Shown here: in pieces, positions 1-5,846 of the stretch
Numbering within the stretch: position 1 is the stretch's first letter
How the letters are laid out: each line of letters opens with the position of its first letter
Origin: a virus
Taxonomy: Duplodnaviria; Heunggongvirae; Uroviricota; Caudoviricetes
IMG/VR virus record: IMGVR_UViG_2695420744_000016
Span: 1-5,846 of that record
DNA: 5,846 bases
Reading direction: 5' to 3' (one strand)
The notes under the pieces: generated by a model
The model's database searches: none
What the model was told of the DNA's origin: nothing
Seen by the model: the letters and a program-made list of their open reading frames with translations, nothing else
Made by a program: the position numbers and the translations under genes

Positions 1-29
1 GAATCATTTTTCAGATGGTGGAAAGAACC

Positions 30-1973
30 ATGGCATTTAAACACTATGATGTTGTCAGGGCGGCGTCGCCGTCAGATCTTGCGGAAAAGCTGACACATAA
101 ACTGAAAGAGGGCTGGCAGCCGTTTGGCAGTCCTGTGGCTATCACGCCTTATACACTGATGCAGGCCATTGCCGCAGAGGGTGATGTGACCACGCCTGTG
201 GTTGTGCCCGACACAGGGGCTGGTGGCTCTCCGGGAGTGGCTACCACTGAACCGGAGTATTACTACGTTATTCCCCTGGCCGGGCAGTCGAACGGTATGG
301 CCTATGGTGAGGGGCTTCCTCTGCCGGAGACCTATGATCGCCCTGACTCCCGTATTAAGCAGCTGGCCCGTCGCAGCACTGTGACGCCGGGTGGTGATAC
401 CTGTGCATACAATGACGTTATTCCGGCAGACCACTGTCTGCATGATGTTCAGGACATGAGCGCACTTAACCATCCTCATGCAGACCTGAGTAAGGGCCAG
501 TACGGGACTGTCGGTCAGGGGCTGCATATTGCCAAAAAACTGCTGCCTTATATCCCGCAGAATGCCGGGATTCTTCTGGTGCCCTGTTGCCGTGGCGGGT
601 CTGGTTTAACCGTGGGTAATGACGGCACGTTCAGCGAAACGTCTGGTGCATCGGCAAATTCAGCCCGCTGGGGAGTGGGTAAACCGCTGTATCAGGATTT
701 TCTCTTCCGTACAAAAGCGGCGCTGTCGAAGAACCCGAAAAACAGGCTTCTGGCCGTGGTATGGATGCAGGGGGAAAATGATCTTGCGGACGGCAGTCAG
801 CAGCACAGCGGCCTGTTTACCACTATGGTGCAGCAGTTCAGGGCTGATATGGCTGCATATTCTGCACAGTGTGTTGGCGGAAGTGCTGGCTCGGTGCCGT
901 GGATTTGTGGTGACACCACGTATTACTGGAAGAATCTTAACGCCGATAAATATGAGGCGGTATATGGCGGTTACAAGGGCAGGGAAGCACAGAATATTTT
1001 CTTTGTACCGTTCCTGACGGATGAGAATGGACAGAGCACGCCAACGAATGCTCCGGCGGAAGACCCGGATATTGTGGCTGTCGGGTATTACGGTGCAGCA
1101 TCCCGAACCCAGGGCAGTTTTGTTTCGACACAGCGTGACAGCCATTTCAGCTCATGGGCACGCAGGGGCGTCATTTCAGACCGTCTGGCCTCAGCTATTA
1201 TGCTCCATGCAGGGCGCACGGCTGAATTGATGCGCGGGCAGACCGTGACACCACCGGATGAGAAGCCGTCACCTGATACACCATCAAAACCGTCCACGCC
1301 ACCCGCAGACACCACGACGATGAGTACGCTATTTGCTTACCGGGCATCTGAGTCTGAAGGACGGTTGACACCACAGGGTTGGGCTGCTGGAGGTGGCAAG
1401 GCTCAAATCGTGGATGATGCCGGAGCCAGCGGGGGTAAGGCAATGAAACTGACCAAGGAAACAGGAAGAGCCCCCTGGTACCTTGAGCATGATGCTGGTA
1501 ATGGTGCGGACCTGCTGGGTAAAGGTGGTCTTGTCAGTTGTCGTTTTAAACTCGATGGCGCGCTTACGGCTAATCAGTACGCACTGGCGCTGTACTGGCC
1601 GGTTTCTTCATTGCCTCAGGGTGTCACACTGGAAGGTAATGCCGGTAACAATCTGCTGGCGTCGTTTTACGTACAGAGCGATGCCACAGACCTCAACGTG
1701 ATGTACCACAAGGGTAACGCTGACCAGAACACGAAGCTGGGGTCATTCGGCGCATTTGACAACGAATGGCATACGCTGGGTTTCCGTTTTGCCGGTAATA
1801 ACAGCATTCAGGTGACGCCGGTGATTGATGGTCAGGATGGTGCACCGTTCATGCTGTCGCAGTCTCCGGTAGGTTCTTTTGCGGCAGACAAATTACGTGT
1901 AACGGATATCACAAAAGCGGCGACGTATACGGTGCTGATTGAAAGTATAACAGTGGAAGTGAATAACCCGTAA
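30..1973 (+). CDS. nanS-p: Prophage sialate O-acetylesterase, NanS-p-like (SGNH/SASA hydrolase with N-terminal DUF1737-like segment and C-terminal lectin-like domain)
   Basis: Longest ORF in window. ATG 30 has an SD-like GGTGGA at 17-22 with a 7-nt spacer; the in-frame ATG at 15 has no SD, so 645 aa from 30 is preferred. GQSN catalytic motif in IPLAGQSNGMAYGEG, Pro/Ser/Thr linker PPDEKPSPDTPSKPSTPPADTTT, then a beta-rich C-terminal domain. Matches from memory the ~645-aa esterases encoded downstream of stx/Q in EHEC lambdoid prophages. Confidence 0.85.
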   Translation: MAFKHYDVVRAASPSDLAEKLTHKLKEGWQPFGSPVAITPYTLMQAIAAEGDVTTPVVVPDTGAGGSPGVATTEPEYYYVIPLAGQSNGMAYGEGLPLPETYDRPDSRIKQLARRSTVTPGGDTCAYNDVIPADHCLHDVQDMSALNHPHADLSKGQYGTVGQGLHIAKKLLPYIPQNAGILLVPCCRGGSGLTVGNDGTFSETSGASANSARWGVGKPLYQDFLFRTKAALSKNPKNRLLAVVWMQGENDLADGSQQHSGLFTTMVQQFRADMAAYSAQCVGGSAGSVPWICGDTTYYWKNLNADKYEAVYGGYKGREAQNIFFVPFLTDENGQSTPTNAPAEDPDIVAVGYYGAASRTQGSFVSTQRDSHFSSWARRGVISDRLASAIMLHAGRTAELMRGQTVTPPDEKPSPDTPSKPSTPPADTTTMSTLFAYRASESEGRLTPQGWAAGGGKAQIVDDAGASGGKAMKLTKETGRAPWYLEHDAGNGADLLGKGGLVSCRFKLDGALTANQYALALYWPVSSLPQGVTLEGNAGNNLLASFYVQSDATDLNVMYHKGNADQNTKLGSFGAFDNEWHTLGFRFAGNNSIQVTPVIDGQDGAPFMLSQSPVGSFAADKLRVTDITKAATYTVLIESITVEVNNP

Positions 1974-2121
1974 GCAGGAAAAAAAGACCGCCGTGGCAGG
2001 GAAAACAAGGAGCCAGAACCGGCGGCAGAAGTCGCTACATCCTTAGCAAAAATATGCTGAGCAAAAAATGCAGGAGTTTTTTACTGGCAGGCATTGACCA
2101 TGTCAATAATGGAGATGAATA

Positions 2122-2304
2122 ATGACATTTTTACAGCTGATTATGTTGTATTTCTGTACAGCAGTTTGTGTGCTGTATCTTCTTTCTGGTGGGTACAGAG
2201 TCGTGAGAGATTTCTGGCGCAGACAGATTGACAAAAGGGCCGCTGAGAAAATCAGTGCCAGTCAGTCAGCCGGAACAAAACCCGAAGAGCCTCTCATTCC
2301 GTAG
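2122..2304 (+). CDS. Hypothetical small membrane protein (60 aa, one predicted TM helix followed by a basic segment)
   Basis: ATG 2122 preceded by GGAG at 2111-2114 with a 7-nt spacer. Hydrophobic stretch FLQLIMLYFCTAVCVLYLLSGG followed by RVVRDFWRRQIDKR. No family recognised. Confidence 0.4.
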   Translation: MTFLQLIMLYFCTAVCVLYLLSGGYRVVRDFWRRQIDKRAAEKISASQSAGTKPEEPLIP

Positions 2305-2341
2305 CAACTTTCTTAACAACACCTTTCAACGAGAAAATACC

Positions 2342-2611
2342 ATGTCAGAAATAAAATCGCTGGTCACTGCTGAAGCAGTGAAGGAAGTCCTGCGCTCTGA
2401 AGAAGTCAGAAGCGCACTGAAACAGCAACTTCGGCAGAACCTTGAGGCGCGTCTTGATGCAGAAGTGGATGCCATTCTGGATGAACTGCTGGGCGCACCG
2501 ACTGTTCCGGAGCCGGAAGGCATTGCGGATGACAGTGCTGTTTCAGATGGCGTCGGGTCTCAGCCTGATGGTAGCAGTGAGCCTCAGCCTGACGGCGAAA
2601 TGATGATGTAA
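2342..2611 (+). CDS. Hypothetical acidic protein (90 aa), helical N-terminus and D/E/P/S-rich tail
   Basis: The ORF track gives 2228-2611, but 2228 is a TTG codon and overlaps the 2122-2304 ORF. The first in-frame ATG is 2342, with a weak GAGA SD-like sequence about 7 nt upstream. About 20 acidic versus 7 basic residues. Tail contains an imperfect repeat SQPDG...EPQPDG (DNA 2558-2571 and 2582-2595). Confidence 0.5.
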   Translation: MSEIKSLVTAEAVKEVLRSEEVRSALKQQLRQNLEARLDAEVDAILDELLGAPTVPEPEGIADDSAVSDGVGSQPDGSSEPQPDGEMMM

Positions 2612-2686
2612 CCATGCGCAGGGGCTGTCGGTGTGAGCTGATGCCCCTCTTGTTGTTGTGAGCTTCCGGATTGCGGGAGACGGGGT

Positions 2687-2902
2687 ATGTACCAGATGGA
2701 AAAAATCACAACAGGTGTGTCATACACCACGTCAGCGGTGGGGACGGGCTACTGGTTCCTGCAGCTGCTGGACAGGGTTTCCCCGTCTCAGTGGGCGGCA
2801 ATAGGCGTACTGGGAAGTCTGCTGTTTGGGCTGCTGACATATCTGACTAACCTGTATTTCAAAATCAGAGAGGACCGTCGTAAGGCGGCGCGGGGAGAGT
2901 AA
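2687..2902 (+). CDS. S: Class II holin, phage-21 S21-like pinholin (71 aa) with dual-start motif
   Basis: GGGAG at 2675-2679, 7 nt before ATG 2687. Met1 and Met4 (MYQMEK) form a dual start as in the S21 71/68 antiholin/holin pair. Two TMDs: Gly/Ser/Thr-rich TMD1 ([21 protein letters not shown]) and TMD2 ([23 protein letters not shown]), with a basic C-terminus [13 protein letters not shown] that matches S21 as I recall it. Confidence 0.9.
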
Positions 2903-2906
2903 AGCG

Positions 2907-3251
2907 ATGAAGAAAAAATACGAACTGGTTGTTAAAGGGATAAATAATTACCCGAATAAGATTACTGTTACTGTGGCACTGGAAATTGGTGGGTATCCGT
3001 CACTGTTGTTGCCAGATGTGGCGATTAGTCTTGACCGTACTGAAGATGCCACGCTGGAGTTTTACGAAGCTGAGGCGAAAAAGCAGGCGAAGCAGTTTTT
3101 CATGGATGTTGCTGCCGGGTTATGTGAAGGGGATGGTCCGTTGCCGGAAAAGCGCCCCGTAATTTTAGAGGCGCAGGATGTGTTGATAACCTACAGAGGA
3201 AAACTACCGGGAATAATTACTGGTTCTCTGAAGACTCCACCGCTGGCCTGA
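2907..3251 (+). CDS. Hypothetical cytoplasmic protein (114 aa) between holin and endolysin; YdfR-like (DUF1327-type) by position and recollection
   Basis: ATG 2907 lies 4 nt after the holin stop (2900-2902) with GGAG at 2894-2897 as SD. No signal peptide or TM segment. The same holin - small unknown gene - lysozyme arrangement exists in E. coli K-12 Qin prophage (essQ-ydfR-rrrQ), recalled from memory. Confidence 0.7.
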   Translation: MKKKYELVVKGINNYPNKITVTVALEIGGYPSLLLPDVAISLDRTEDATLEFYEAEAKKQAKQFFMDVAAGLCEGDGPLPEKRPVILEAQDVLITYRGKLPGIITGSLKTPPLA

Positions 3252-3265
3252 AGACTTAACATATC

Positions 3266-3291
3266 CAGGGATTTGAAATCGATAAACCCTG
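3266..3291 (+). promoter_or_regulatory. Imperfect hairpin immediately upstream of the endolysin start codon
   Basis: CAGGG (3266-3270) pairs with CCCTG (3287-3291) plus two further A-T pairs after one mismatch. The endolysin ATG at 3302 has no recognisable SD in 3285-3301. Confidence 0.3.
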
Positions 3292-3301
3292 ATAAATATC
3301 C

Positions 3302-3835
3302 ATGAACACCAAAATCAAATACGGCCTGTCGGCTGCCGTTCTGGCGCTGATTGCCGCAGGTGCGCCTGCGCCTGAAATCCTCGACCAGTTTCTGGATGAA
3401 AAGGAAGGTAACCACACCACGGCATACCGTGATGGCGCGGGTATCTGGACCATCTGCCGCGGTGCCATCATGGTGGATAGTAAACCTGTCGTTCCGGGCA
3501 TGAAGTTGTCGAAGGAAAAATGCGACCAGGTTAACGCCATTGAGCGTGATAAAGCGCTGGCGTGGGTGGAGAAAAACATCAGAGTGCCGCTGACCGAACC
3601 CCAGAAAGCGGGGATCGCGTCATTCTGTCCGTACAACATTGGTCCCGGTAAGTGTTTCCCGTCGACGTTTTACAGACGAATTAATGCAGGTGATCGAAAA
3701 GGTGCCTGCGAAGCGATTCGCTGGTGGATTAAGGACGGTGGCAGAGACTGCCGTATTCGCTCAAATAACTGTTACGGTCAGGTATCCCGTCGTGACCAGG
3801 AGAGCGCGCTGGCGTGCTGGGGTATCGACAGATAA
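3302..3835 (+). CDS. R: SAR endolysin (signal-anchor-release lysozyme, T4-lysozyme-like GH24 muramidase), R21-type
   Basis: 177 aa. N-terminal Ala/Gly-rich weakly hydrophobic SAR segment GLSAAVLALIAAGAPAP. Catalytic E-x8-D-x5-T triad at E35/D44/T50 (EGNHTTAYRDGAGIWT). No Cys in the SAR segment, arguing against P1 Lyz-type disulfide caging. Confidence 0.92.
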   Translation: MNTKIKYGLSAAVLALIAAGAPAPEILDQFLDEKEGNHTTAYRDGAGIWTICRGAIMVDSKPVVPGMKLSKEKCDQVNAIERDKALAWVEKNIRVPLTEPQKAGIASFCPYNIGPGKCFPSTFYRRINAGDRKGACEAIRWWIKDGGRDCRIRSNNCYGQVSRRDQESALACWGIDR

Positions 3836-3924
3836 GCAGAATATTTTGCTGAAAAATGCGGTTTGCTCACACGGACGGATAACATGAAATCCTGCGAACT
3901 GGCGAAACGTAAGTGAATAAAAGT

Positions 3925-3964
3925 AAAAACCCCGTTTGTTGGCACCAAGCGGGGTTTTGTGTTT
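3925..3964 (+). terminator. Rho-independent terminator-like hairpin with flanking A- and T-tracts
   Basis: A-tract 3925-3929; stem 3930-3938 (CCCCGTTTG) pairs with 3946-3954 (CAAGCGGGG) as 9 bp including one G-U; 7-nt loop; followed by TTTTGTGTTT. The flanking A/T tracts make it potentially bidirectional. Confidence 0.6.
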
Positions 3965-4033
3965 CCTGACTCCGGAAAAGTCAAAGGAGAAAGTGTGTTT
4001 GATTTTAGCAAACTGATTCGGGAGATTCGAGTG

Positions 4034-4132
4034 ATGGCTGAAAAATTATCCACCTGGAAGTTCATTCTTATCTGGCTGGTGTTTGTGATTATGGCCTCCG
4101 GTTATTTCATCGGTCAGATACGCTGGTGGTGA
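4034..4132 (+). CDS. Candidate small single-pass membrane peptide (32 aa from ATG 4034; 46 aa if GTG 3995 is used), translationally coupled to Rz
   Basis: Below the 60-aa cutoff of the ORF track. GGGAG at 4020-4024, 9 nt before ATG 4034; alternatively AAGGAG at 3984-3989, 5 nt before GTG 3995. Translation [32 protein letters not shown]. Stop TGA 4130-4132 is 1 nt before the Rz ATG at 4134. Confidence 0.3.
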
Positions 4133-4133
4133 A

Positions 4134-4601
4134 ATGAACCGCGTACTGTGCGTGGTCATCATTGCTCTGCTGGTGGCCTGTGGTGCGCTTAGTCTGGGGC
4201 TGAATCATTACCGCGATAACGCCATCACTTACAAAGCGCAGCGCGATAAAAAAGCCAGAGAGCTGGAGCTGGCAAACGCAACCATTACTGATATGCAGGT
4301 GCGCCAGCGTGATGTTGCTGCGCTCGATGCAAAATACTCGAGGGAATTAGCCGATGCGAGAGCTGAAAATGAAACTCTTCGCGCTGACGTTGCCGCTGGT
4401 CGTAAGCGCCTGCGTATCAACGCCACCTGTCCAGGTCCCGTGCGTGAAGCCACCGGCACCGCCCGCGTGGATAATGCAACCGGCCCCCGACTGGCAGACA
4501 CCGCTGAACGGGATTATTTCACCCTCAGAGAGCGGCTGATGACGATGCACAAGCAACTGGAAGGGGCGCAGGAATATATCCGTACTCAGTGCCTGAAATA
4601 A
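4134..4601 (+). CDS. Rz: Rz inner-membrane spanin (i-spanin), lambda-type
   Basis: 155 aa with an N-terminal TM helix ([20 protein letters not shown]) and a periplasmic coiled-coil domain. Long near-identical stretches to lambda Rz as I recall it ([46 protein letters not shown]). Confidence 0.92.
4354..4539 (+). CDS. Rz1: Rz1 outer-membrane lipoprotein spanin (o-spanin), embedded in the +1 frame of Rz
   Basis: 61-aa ORF wholly inside Rz. Lipobox VSAC with Cys20. Pro-rich mature part whose C-terminus [32 protein letters not shown] is near-identical to lambda Rz1 as recalled. SD-like GGGA at 4342-4345. Confidence 0.88.
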
Positions 4602-4951
4602 GTTTTGTTGATGCGCCGTATCGTCGCTGTATTCCCTCATTAACAGAGACCGCAGCCCGACAGGGAGACTCCTCTGCGCGAGTGTGCGGGGATAATCAAA
4701 AACGATACACACCGGGGTTTACCGCGTTAACGGAGCGCGGCGTTGTCCCCTCATAGTCGCCTGTCCGGTGCGATGGTGGAAGAAACCGGATGTTTATCAC
4801 TATTAATTGATGACACAGAAATGGATTCATTGAATTTCAGCACGTTTTTGTATTCGTGTTATTGAACATCTGTTTATTTTACTTTTAACATATTGATAAT
4901 AAAAAGAGCTGTAAATCTTTAGATGAGTCGATTTTGTCCGGGGAAGTTCAA

Positions 4952-5092
4952 ATGGATTTTATGCTGACGGTTTCTGGTGTGGTTATCCTGTCCATTGCTT
5001 ATACTGCAGATAAATATGGCTGCCATTTGTTATCACGTATTGGCGCTTATTGTTCGTTGATGCTGATTTTCTCGTCGCTTTTTTTTGAGTAA
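4952..5092 (+). CDS. Candidate small hydrophobic protein (46 aa), hypothetical
   Basis: ATG 4952 preceded by GGGGAAG at 4940-4946. Translation MDFMLTVSGVVILSIAYTADKYGCHLLSRIGAYCSLMLIFSSLFFE. Lies in an AT-rich segment; no family recognised. May correspond positionally to the small ORF annotated a few hundred bp before the right end of lambda, which I cannot confirm. Confidence 0.2.
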   Translation: MDFMLTVSGVVILSIAYTADKYGCHLLSRIGAYCSLMLIFSSLFFE

Positions 5093-5224
5093 GTTATATT
5101 AATTATAACAAATAATTTTCTGTGTTATTTTTTCAGGCTATCCCGTCAGAGGGGAAGCCTGTACTGCCGGGGAGCGAATGGAAAACTGATGTGTCCGGTA
5201 ACTGCGTGTTCTGTGAACACCATG

Positions 5225-5410
5225 TTACTTAATTATGTAATTCATACCCGAACTCTCTGTTGACAGCCTTCTTCTGCAGGCTTCAATAACCCACGCTGAA
5301 AAGTTTCCTGAACCTTTCAGATCAAGAGCGATGTTAATTTGTTCAATCATCTGGTTTGGAAATCGGATGTTGCGGGTTGTTGTTCTGCGGGTTCTGTTCT
5401 TTGATGACAT
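5225..5410 (-). CDS. Arc/Mnt-like ribbon-helix-helix (RHH) DNA-binding protein, 61 aa, orphan
   Basis: Reverse-strand ORF. Basic N-terminal arm (MSSKNRTRRTTTRN), predicted beta-strand NIRFP, helix A QMIEQINIALDL, G-x-N-x-S turn and helix B NFSAWVIEACRRRL. Aligns by eye with P22 Arc (FNLRWPREVLDLVRKVAEENGRSVNSEIYQRV). A -10-like GATAAT sits on the reverse strand at 5444-5449. Confidence 0.6.
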   Translation of the reverse strand: MSSKNRTRRTTTRNIRFPNQMIEQINIALDLKGSGNFSAWVIEACRRRLSTESSGMNYIIK

Positions 5411-5465
5411 AATGTTTCCCCATATTCAGTGTTGCTGATTTGTATTATCTGAAGTTGCTTTTACG

Positions 5466-5512
5466 TTAATTTGATGCAGATCAATTAATACGATACCTGC
5501 GTCATAATTGAT
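5466..5512. repeat. Cluster of TAATTGAT-type inverted repeats upstream of the RHH gene
   Basis: TAATTTGAT (5467-5475), ATCAATTA (5480-5487) and its exact reverse complement TAATTGAT (5505-5512); also CGTCA (5500-5504) paired with TGACG (5517-5521). Confidence 0.35.
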
Positions 5513-5609
5513 TATTTGACGTGGTTTGATGGCGTAGATGCACGTTGTGACATGTAGATGATAATTATTATCATTTTGCGGGTCCTTTCCGGCGATCCGA
5601 CAGGTTACG

Positions 5610-5621
5610 GGGCGGCGACCT
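5610..5621 (+). other. cosN, lambda-type 12-nt cohesive-end sequence GGGCGGCGACCT
   Basis: Exact lambda cohesive-end 12-mer. Flanked upstream by GGGTCCTTTCCGGCGATCCGACAGGTTACG (lambda right end as recalled, with one T-to-C difference) and downstream by CGCGGGTTTTCGCTATTTATGAAAATTTTCCGG (lambda left end). Confidence 0.85.
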
Positions 5622-5798
5622 CGCGGGTTTTCGCTATTTATGAAAATTTTCCGGTTTAAGGCATTTCCGTTCTTCTTCGTCGTAACTTAATGTTTTTATT
5701 TAAAATACCCCCTGAAAAGAAAGGAAACGACAGGTGCTGAAAACGAGCTTTTGGGCCTCTGTCGTTTCCTTTCTCTGTTTTTGGCCGTGGAATGAACA
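5622..5798 (+). other. cosB terminase-binding region (R3, I1/IHF, R2, R1 elements) of a lambda-type cos
   Basis: Nu1-binding R-element cores present: CATTTCC at 5662-5668 (R3; lambda has CGTTTCC as I recall), GGAAACG at 5723-5729 (R2, inverted), CGTTTCC at 5763-5769 (R1). AT-rich IHF-type segment around 5683-5705. Ends at the Nu1 start. Confidence 0.7.
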
Positions 5799-5846
5799 AT
5801 GGAAGTCAACAAAAAGCAGCTGGCTGACATTTTCGGTGCGAGTATC
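5799..5846 (+). CDS. nu1: Terminase small subunit Nu1 (N-terminal 16 codons; CDS continues beyond the window)
   Basis: Translation MEVNKKQLADIFGASI is identical to the N-terminus of lambda gpNu1 as recalled, at the expected distance (about 190 bp) downstream of cosN. Confidence 0.9.
   Translation, partial: MEVNKKQLADIFGASI

Follow-up and report, generated by a model that had tools for sequence, protein, structure and literature searches.

A conserved membrane-peptide gene between the endolysin and Rz genes of a lambdoid Escherichia coli prophage lies in a portable late-operon cassette with a predicted sar-like antisense RNA

What occupies the gap between the endolysin gene R and the spanin gene Rz in lambdoid prophages? 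This R–Rz slot, in Shiga-toxin (Stx1, Stx2) prophages as in others, is usually regarded as empty or as holding "hypothetical" open reading frames (ORFs). We addressed the question in a 5,846-nt stretch of DNA (IMG/VR virus record IMGVR_UViG_2695420744_000016, positions 1 to 5,846; Caudoviricetes), referred to below as the window, which is the late region of a lambdoid (H-19B/Stx-type) Escherichia coli prophage. Its R and Rz genes are 298 nt apart, and an earlier examination of the letters alone, here called the sequence-only reading, had pointed to a short ORF between them as an unannotated membrane-peptide gene translationally coupled to Rz. The analysis described here shows that the ORF is a real, conserved and portable gene, and that a hairpin and a leader upstream of it belong to the same cassette. 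The explanation that we rank first, and to which we give about an even chance, is a portable cassette of terminator, leader and 45-codon gene with an antisense RNA resembling sar of phage P22.

The frame closes with a TGA at 4130–4132, one nucleotide before the Rz ATG at 4134–4136 (window positions throughout), as had been observed from the letters. Three in-frame start codons are available: GTG 3959 (57 aa), GTG 3995 (45 aa) and ATG 4034 (32 aa). The sequence-only reading gave the ORF as 32–46 codons and quoted the 32-aa product of ATG 4034; its upper figure corresponds to the 45-aa product plus the stop codon. We take GTG 3995, which follows a Shine-Dalgarno (SD) motif AAGGAG (3984–3989) at a distance of 5 nt, as the supported start, because the protein family PHROG 6632 aligns over positions 1–45 of 45 from that codon and because homologues in other genera begin there, with the same SD. 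GTG is the start codon in 65 of 80 unique homologous sequences and TTG in 13. The ATG at codon 14 (4034–4036) is invariant in 36 of 36 distinct peptides, and a GGGAG (4020–4024, codons 9–10) lies about 9 nt ahead of it; these may mark an internal second start that would give the 32-aa product, a dual-start motif like that of holins. The stop-1 nt-ATG junction is kept in all 120 copies that have an Rz-type gene next, and the position is thus suited to coupling of Rz translation to that of the peptide by termination and reinitiation, as proposed earlier, if such coupling occurs.

By itself, the ORF is not beyond chance expectation: the window contains 81 ORFs of at least 20 aa, and the evidence that the gene is real is therefore its conservation. 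PHROG 6632, a phage family with no assigned function, matches residues 1–45 with an E-value of 1.2e-29 (102.9 bits). The ORF is intact in every recovered copy (192 copies at about 190 loci, with 36 distinct peptides of 44–48 aa), and homologues from Enterobacterales, Pseudomonas and Azoarcus share 48–98% identity. With tblastn, the peptide was found solely as a short independent ORF in phages, at 91–98% identity in Stx1a, Stx2a and Stx2c phages and H-19B, 67% in Salmonella SPN3UB and FSL SP-016, 60% in Salmonella SEN34, and 50% in Pseudomonas phages YMC11/02/R656 and D14H. Further homologues, from scans of species genomes and viral contigs, were in Citrobacter, Edwardsiella, Yersinia, Sodalis, Brenneria, Pantoea, Providencia, Trabulsiella, Dryocola, Pseudomonas reactans and one Azoarcus metagenome-assembled genome (MAG). 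Among 24 members ending in RWW, the proportion of differences over codons 19–45 was 0.69 at synonymous sites (pS) vs. 0.21 at nonsynonymous sites (pN), and dN/dS was 0.1–0.25 where computable. In its 3' half, then, synonymous sites are saturated and the protein is conserved, which is purifying selection. The earlier proposal, a small membrane-peptide gene that stands on its own and has a good SD, holds.

The alternative raised earlier was that the ORF is the C-terminal end left by deletion of a longer gene, for instance the Ant-like gene of some Stx phages; it might also be a chance ORF. The frame is indeed open upstream to 3917, and some gene callers extend it to 65–86 aa. However, an exhaustive hidden Markov model (HMM) search of 1.84 billion representative proteins returned only 41 clusters, all of 32–86 aa, the longer of which are upstream over-extensions of the same frame, and found no match of the peptide to the C-terminus of a longer protein. 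The conserved start codon and SD are present in each genus, and the peptide is under the purifying selection described above. The Ant gene in the R–Rz slot of prophage Sp15 of strain Sakai ends in ...LADTGKGKITKAD, bears no relation to the peptide, and is followed by a different 48-aa membrane ORF. Because no relative exceeds 86 aa and Ant is unrelated, the remnant reading is refuted, and we consider it extremely improbable in either form. The 45-aa ORF is a real conserved gene, already catalogued as a family.

Its description as unannotated was correct for the RefSeq record with 100% identity (NZ_AP045820.1) and incorrect for others, which list the 45-aa ORF as WP_000459345.1 ("hypothetical protein"), as CAH23245.1 ("putative bacteriophage protein") in CP-1639, and as "phage protein" in further NCBI entries. 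A literature search by peptide or accession numbers returned no papers on the 45-aa peptide, and a general search on small RNAs (sRNAs) and spanins returned irrelevant reviews only. The slot (3836–4140) is 100% identical to that of strains 23CRST047 and 23CRST049. Of 5426 complete E. coli genomes, 2011 (37%) match its sequence, including the hairpin and leader, and 868 (16%) have the full region with the gene present in the window (type A).

The genomic positions of the homologues reveal how freely the gene moves. Of the 192 copies, 120 have an Rz-type gene immediately downstream, and the order endolysin, ORF, i-spanin recurs with four unrelated endolysin types: a signal-arrest-release (SAR) GH24 enzyme in E. 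coli and SPN3UB, PHROG 315 in Edwardsiella, PHROG 873 in Citrobacter braakii, and PHROG 181 (GH19-like) in Citrobacter Cu233. In 27 further copies the next gene, after a gap of 3–15 nt, is a baseplate gene whose product begins MRYRRE. Such a gene follows in SEN34, where the cassette lies between a baseplate assembly protein gene and the next baseplate gene, and in Pantoea and Dryocola. Elsewhere the cassette was found after a 965-aa ORF close to a contig end (Brenneria), between tail genes K and I (Pseudomonas phages), after a tail assembly protein gene (P. reactans), after a tail fibre gene (Sodalis), and between the genes for an internal virion protein and a lytic virion protein (the Azoarcus MAG); in Yersinia phages too it lies away from the lysis genes, in tail, baseplate or virion operons. 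Similarity across these contexts begins at the hairpin, some 70 nt ahead of the start codon, and ends with the stop codon. Because hairpin, leader and gene recur together in baseplate, tail and virion operons, the unit appears to be a portable accessory cassette of about 215 bp in temperate-phage late operons. The suggestion of a fourth lysis component fits only in part: a lysis role is possible, given the four endolysin families, but the gene is also carried in tail, baseplate and virion operons.

The slot itself is variable in E. coli. Other prophages carry other small single-pass peptides there, here called types B (60 aa), C (43–48 aa) and D (28–37 aa); type D appears to be a truncated B and shares the ...IRWW-stop-ATG junction to Rz. 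In K-12 Qin there is no slot, and rrrQ and rzpQ overlap. At least four slot peptide families (A–D) are annotated as "hypothetical" or not annotated, and one ST131 prophage has four such small ORFs in an array. The stretch at 3836–3925, a tail 3' of R, lies outside the portable cassette and is kept with a type A, B or D cassette or with ant; its equivalent is also found upstream of ant in Sakai Sp15, and partial megablast matches to query positions 1–129 or 1–157 occur in more than 1000 E. coli genomes. It contains a 10-codon mini-ORF (ATG 3885 to TGA 3917; MKSCELAKRK).

The 5' boundary of the cassette is a GC-rich hairpin with arms AAAACCCCG...CGGGGTTTT. An A-run precedes it and a T-run follows, and the hairpin therefore reads as an intrinsic terminator on both strands. 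In RNAalifold predictions for 15 and 24 diverse members, it was the sole conserved structure on either strand, with compensatory changes at 8 of 12 pairs and 7 of 9 pairs in the two alignments, and nearly all homologues have it some 35 nt ahead of the start codon, whatever the genomic context. The leader between hairpin and start codon is conserved as TTTCTGCACCTTGAnGAnGGCAAGGGAGAAC. Its SD can partly pair with an upstream CTCC, in other members as CCTTG-N7-CAAGG, and folds of individual sequences gave the compensatory stem variants CCTTG/CAAGG, CCTG/CAGG, CTCATG/CATGGGG and CGTTA/TAACG. Our covariance model of the element scored 71–81 bits on type B and type D loci, so the hairpin and leader are shared by different small ORFs.

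Constraint does not end at the start codon. Mean third-position entropy was 0.68 over codons 3–18 vs. 1.60 over codons 19–42 (Mann-Whitney p = 3e-5), and pS was 0.36 over codons 3–18 vs. 0.69 over codons 19–45, which shows that a nucleotide-level constraint overlaps codons 3–18. In the 36 distinct peptides, third-position entropy was 0 at codons 3, 4 and 5 (GAT, TTT/ATT, AGC) and 0.18 at codons 10 (GAG in 35 of 36) and 12 (CGA in 35 of 35 Arg); the Ser5 codon is always AGC, of six possible. This constraint is not accounted for by plus-strand mRNA structure, of which RNAalifold found none conserved across the 5' part of the ORF. What the conserved codons do contain, on the minus strand, is a predicted extended −10 promoter element. 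Among 80 unique cassettes the 9-mer is TGCTAAAAT in 58, TGCTAATAT in 20, TGCTAAGAT in one and TGATAAAAT in one; the pattern TGnTA(A)(A/T/G)AT is present in 80 of 80, the variable sites being −10 position 4 and "n". The Azoarcus homologue has D-to-N and S-to-I replacements, yet retains the motif as TGATAAAAT. A simple sigma70 scorer put this site at the top, both strands considered, in 32 of 36 representatives, and no plus-strand sigma70-like site was found within the cassette, where the scan match and the top sites were all on the minus strand. Another minus-strand site from a consensus scan (CTGACC-18-CATAAT, 4117–4088) was dropped, since homologues do not retain it. Apart from the predicted −10, the pattern is matched just once in the window, by a perfect extended −10, TGTTATAAT, at 5102–5110 (−), between Rz and a YlcI/YnfO-family gene. 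The sequence-only reading passed over both the conserved terminator hairpin and this probable antisense promoter within the ORF.

An RNA started from this promoter would be complementary to the SD and leader and would end at the hairpin and its U-run. The window copy is predicted to fold into a 5' stem-loop, an A-rich linker and the terminator (−23.2 kcal/mol, z = −3.3), and a two-hairpin layout, as in P22 sar, was found in at least 20 of 24 homologues. In P22, sar RNA limits antirepressor synthesis. The P22 annotation (NC_002371.2) places sar at 15021–15090 (−), its terminator at 15021–15058 right after arc, and its promoter Psar at 15097–15125 (−), within the first codons of ant (ATG 15091). 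The geometry annotated in P22 is the one predicted in the cassette: an RNA of about 70 nt from an opposite-strand promoter within the first codons of its target, a 5' end abutting the start codon, full complementarity to SD and leader, and a 5' stem-loop plus a terminator hairpin just past the preceding gene. The −10 lies at +7 to +12 of the start codon in P22 (TATACT) and at +8 to +13 in the type A cassette; type B cassettes have TATACT at +8 to +13. The terminator loops are also alike (GACTGTT..GCA..). The two systems differ in their targets, a 300-aa antirepressor in P22 vs. a 45-aa membrane peptide here, and in that the cassette element, unlike P22 sar, travels with its target through lysis and tail operons of many genera. 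The Rfam family sar (RF00262) matched an Edwardsiella homologue (L016, 2927–2997 (−)) over model positions 1–68 of 68 with 28.6 bits and a local E-value of 3e-4, exactly at the predicted RNA position, and ctRNA_pGA1 matched, below gathering score, at the predicted RNA of the Azoarcus homologue (L022, 2917–3000 (−)).

Several results nevertheless weigh against an antisense RNA. The best RF00262 score (28.6) is below the gathering threshold of 43, the family had no match on the window itself at E ≤ 10, and the best match of our model R1 in P22 is the sar terminator alone (15021–15058 (−)), partial, with 17.4 bits and an E-value of 0.081. The generic pattern TGNTAWDAT occurs twice in the window where one match is expected by chance, so that a single site is not significant, and the candidate −35 agrees with TTGACA at three of six positions, a weak match. 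Constraint at codons 9–14 could instead reflect the internal SD GGGAG and the invariant codon-14 ATG. A/U-rich codons after the start favour translation generally. Many of the sequences are related, and the effective number of independent lineages is about seven. The list of sRNAs obtained by Hfq cross-linking and analysis of cDNA (CRAC) in enterohaemorrhagic E. coli Sakai has none in the R–Rz slot, but the dataset is uninformative here because the five Sakai prophages checked carry ant and a type C peptide in the slot, not this cassette. In one viral contig (L183), some 80 nt upstream of the ORF, about 45 extra nt separate the start codon from the nearest hairpin; this contig retains the ORF and the minus-strand −10 motif, and the RNA predicted there would be longer. 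Finally, the hairpin would hinder sense transcription in phages without antitermination. We predict that the cassette element works like sar; homology to the sar family is unproven, because the window copy has no sar match and our own model scores only the sar terminator.

Searches with other RNA families were of little help. On the whole window no Rfam family reached its gathering threshold, and at the locus the only match was rimP (E-value 0.99), with two unrelated weak matches elsewhere; restricting the search to 3890–4030 added BTnc005 and ohsC (15 bits, E-value 4.7), and all three score on the terminator alone. Our model of the antisense element gave a weak full-length match at the P22 oop RNA (L206, 32261–32351 (−); 17.3 bits, E-value 0.086), an indication that short antisense RNAs of phages have a generic layout in common, which can give weak cross-hits.

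Previously described prophage sRNAs were considered as candidates for an RNA in the slot and rejected on position. EcOnc10, EcOnc11 and EcOnc12 (Tree et al. 2014, Table S2), antisense and about 5 kb past the AgvB site, map downstream of Rz, where a minus-strand gene has its 3' end; EcOnc52 maps beside an insertion sequence (IS) element, and EcOnc33 inside the esterase gene. The Hfq-bound EcOnc33 (Tree et al. 2014), about 71 nt long and with a terminator, maps antisense in Sakai Sp6, within the 3' end of the esterase gene; the late region of this prophage has the same gene order as the window. EcOnc22 (homologues EcOnc23 and EcOnc24), of about 85 nt and destabilised without Hfq, lies at L199 7715–7775 (+) in Sakai Sp15, antisense in a 240-nt gap between the tail assembly gene I and gene J and beside a hairpin caggcaccctccggggtgcctg, at a tail-operon insertion site. 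The Pas sRNAs of enteropathogenic E. coli also have positions other than the R–Rz slot: PasA, PasC and PasD lie between the esterase and the holin region and PasB in structural operons, the Hfq-dependent PasA and PasC being in the interval from sialate esterase to holin-lysozyme and PasD just upstream of the esterase (10.64898/2026.05.13.724894). The PasA/PasC interval corresponds to about 1974–2687 of the window, where Rfam gave no family match; in the equivalent upstream region of a Citrobacter prophage (L015, 1119–1329), STnc100 matched with 89.6 bits.

The peptide itself is predicted to be a tail-anchored, single-pass membrane protein with its N-terminus inside. Its most hydrophobic 19-residue window is 24–42 (mean Kyte-Doolittle hydropathy 2.13), with five K/R residues before it and one after it, and AlphaFold2 gave a single helix over residues 4–44 with a pLDDT of 86. 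On this topology the charged, amphipathic N-terminal 20 or so residues would be cytoplasmic, the transmembrane (TM) segment would span about 22–42, and RWW would sit at the periplasmic face of the inner membrane. Conserved residues are D3, S5, K6, E10, R12, M14, W21, F23 and W27. Pfam, NCBIfam and PADLOC gave no match to the peptide apart from a spurious TM match to Epiglycanin_C (E-value 0.12), and no holin, antiholin or spanin family of Pfam, PHROGs or NCBIfam matches it.

From these elements we infer the following course of events. Late, Q-antiterminated transcription would run through the hairpin, and the peptide would be translated from GTG 3995 and inserted as a tail-anchored helix; in lambdoid lysis cassettes, ribosomes finishing it may reinitiate at the Rz ATG. 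The minus-strand extended −10 promoter (codons 3–12) would fire an RNA of about 75 nt from approximately the start codon over the SD to the hairpin. By analogy with sar, its pairing with the ribosome-binding site (RBS) would keep the peptide silent in the lysogen and delayed or limited after induction and, through coupling, would also affect part of Rz synthesis. As to what the peptide does, we rank first a membrane accessory of late infection, modulating lysis timing or excluding superinfecting DNA, and second a killer resembling type I toxins.

Known systems help to place the alternatives. HK97 gp15, a small inner-membrane superinfection-exclusion protein, is reportedly an example of a lambdoid moron. 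In classical morons, which are expressed in the lysogen, a sense promoter precedes the gene and a terminator follows it. Like them, the present gene is an optional small gene for a predicted inner-membrane protein, located in lysis or tail regions between genes that are adjacent in related phages, as the direct R/Rz overlap in K-12 Qin and the alternative cargo elsewhere indicate; it differs in that its terminator is upstream, its stop abuts the next gene, and its sole promoter-like element points the other way. A plain moron-like membrane-protein gene, with no antisense RNA, with the hairpin as a passenger terminator or mRNA stabiliser, and with conservation due to initiation needs and recent recombination at a shared linker, is a tentative alternative that we give clearly less than an even chance. 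It accounts for a real and portable gene, for a hairpin and leader ahead of different ORFs, as a recombination linker predicts, and for the A/U-rich early codons, and it gains from the chance frequency of the promoter pattern, from the sub-threshold scores of all the Rfam families and from the fact that the antisense transcript is a prediction. It does not explain why Ser5 is invariably AGC when AGT, TCT and TCA are richer in A/U, nor why the −10 motif outlasts two amino-acid changes in Azoarcus. Recent exchange is also hard to reconcile with the free divergence of codons 7–9 and the hairpin in the same lineages, and the best promoter-like site of 32 of 36 representatives stands at the offset of P22 Psar.

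A dedicated fourth lysis protein, a membrane regulator of the pinholin/SAR-endolysin/spanin pathway that would modulate, for instance, antiholin, releasin or spanin and be co-translated with Rz, seems unlikely, even though about two thirds of the copies (120/192) sit exactly between endolysin and i-spanin with a conserved junction of 1 nt or an overlap, the endolysins are of four unrelated families, and the E. coli slot is filled by alternative single-pass peptides (B, C, D). In phages of the SEN34, Pseudomonas, Yersinia and Azoarcus groups the cassette is at a distance from the lysis genes, many lambdoid lysis cassettes are wholly without it, as with the rrrQ/rzpQ overlap of K-12 Qin, and the families of lysis proteins are without a match. 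The peptide shares with the dual-start holins (lambda S105/S107, S21 68/71) its place in a lysis cassette, its small size, its membrane location and a possible second start; it differs in having one TM segment, a C-terminal flank of RWW only instead of a charged cytoplasmic C-terminal tail, no holin family, and a gene that is also found outside lysis cassettes. We think it quite unlikely that the cassette is a module like type I toxin-antitoxin (TA) systems, in which a depolarising membrane toxin with an antisense antitoxin would serve prophage maintenance or abortive infection. With SymE/SymR, Hok/Sok and ShoB/OhsC it shares, or would share, several features: a mobile and autonomous module, a hydrophobic single-helix peptide within the usual size (45 aa, TM 24–42, vs. 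<60 aa), a start codon conserved as non-ATG, a partly sequestered SD, and translation restrained by structure and by a predicted cis-antisense RNA with a terminator overlapping the RBS, as in SymR/SymE. Unlike such systems, the cassette has no sense promoter of its own and only 36 nt from terminator to start codon, and the gene is always co-oriented within essential late phage operons, which is unusual for type I; PADLOC had no match, and the antitoxin RNA ohsC reached the low score given above.

A further proposal joins the antisense RNA to superinfection. The late-region antisense RNA STnc6030 of BTP1 can exclude related superinfecting phages (PMC7067206), and AgvB and AsxR are prophage sRNAs encoded in late regions (PMC4104026). 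Like these, the RNA predicted here is antisense-oriented, has an intrinsic terminator and lies in a temperate-phage late operon; it differs from them in sequence, position and size, and the Rfam families AgvB, AsxR and STnc have no match at the cassette locus. The cassette might be a mobile "antisense-guarded" unit in which a sar-like RNA gene and terminator front interchangeable small peptides (A, B, D): the prophage RNA would silence the resident peptide and, in the manner of STnc6030, attack late transcripts of superinfecting phages that carry the cassette, and the peptide would act late at the membrane. This is speculative, and we hold it to be improbable. Set beside all of these, the portable cassette with a sar-like antisense RNA remains the explanation that we prefer.

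Coordinates of the cassette and its neighbours are collected in Table 1. Two other features of the window deserve mention. A 95-aa minus-strand ORF at 3778–4065 (hypothetical EC_CP1639_38 in CP-1639) is very probably spurious, because it overlaps the hairpin and the 3' end of R and lies opposite a gene that is under purifying selection. At 5715–5777 (−), a near-perfect long inverted repeat, CAGAGAAAGGAAACGACAGAGGCC...GCACCTGTCGTTTCCTTTCTTTT, gave a spurious match to a microRNA precursor and is probably a strong terminator or other structured element upstream of the packaging genes.

Table 1. Features of the window, and of related loci, that bear on the R–Rz slot. Positions refer to the window unless another locus is named.
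Feature	Position	Strand	Basis or remark
SASA esterase	15–1973		ORF list and RefSeq annotation
DUF1378	2122–2304		ORF list and RefSeq annotation
DUF826	about 2342–2611		ORF list and RefSeq annotation
Class II holin, 71 aa	2687–2902		Separate from the 45-aa peptide; ORF list and RefSeq
YdfR-family ORF	2907–3251		ORF list and RefSeq annotation
R, SAR-type lysozyme, upstream neighbour of slot	3302–3835	+	ORF list; RefSeq "lysozyme"
GC-rich hairpin, 5' cassette boundary	3926–3958		A-run before, T-run after; terminator scan
Conserved leader, 36 nt, with SD AAGGAG	3959–3994	+	Sequence, alignments
45-aa membrane-peptide gene, GTG start	3995–4132	+	PHROG 6632, conservation, TM prediction
Predicted antisense RNA, about 75–80 nt	3917–3996	−	Complementary to SD and leader; ends at hairpin and U-run
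Predicted extended −10 element TGCTAAAAT	4002–4010	−	Inside codons 3–6 (TG-n-TAAAAT)
Candidate −35 TCGAAT (TCGCAA in most members)	4025–4030	−	Codons 11–12, 17 nt from −10
Rz (i-spanin)	4134–4601	+	ORF list; RefSeq "lysis protein"
Rz1	4354–4539		Embedded within Rz; ORF list
EcOnc33 locus	L203 1590–1637	−	Equivalent to about 1880–1925 (−) of the window
Slot peptide loci	L008 1656–1982; L009 1657–1985; L010 1722–1835; L011 1656–2141; L199 24749–24895 (−)		

The PHROG 6632 family was already known; what is new is the architecture of the cassette, with its probable sar-like antisense RNA. If that RNA is real, the 40-year-old paradigm of P22 sar would extend from one immunity region to a mobile control element that spans several genera and occurs in lysis as well as tail operons, and a regulator would be added upstream of spanin synthesis, with a bearing on lysis timing and Shiga-toxin release. 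More generally, synonymous-site conservation at the 5' ends of small ORFs can flag hidden antisense promoters, a caution for the reading of such sites elsewhere. If the RNA is not real, the locus would still supply a family of small phage membrane proteins that is clean and testable, its start, topology and conserved residues being defined.

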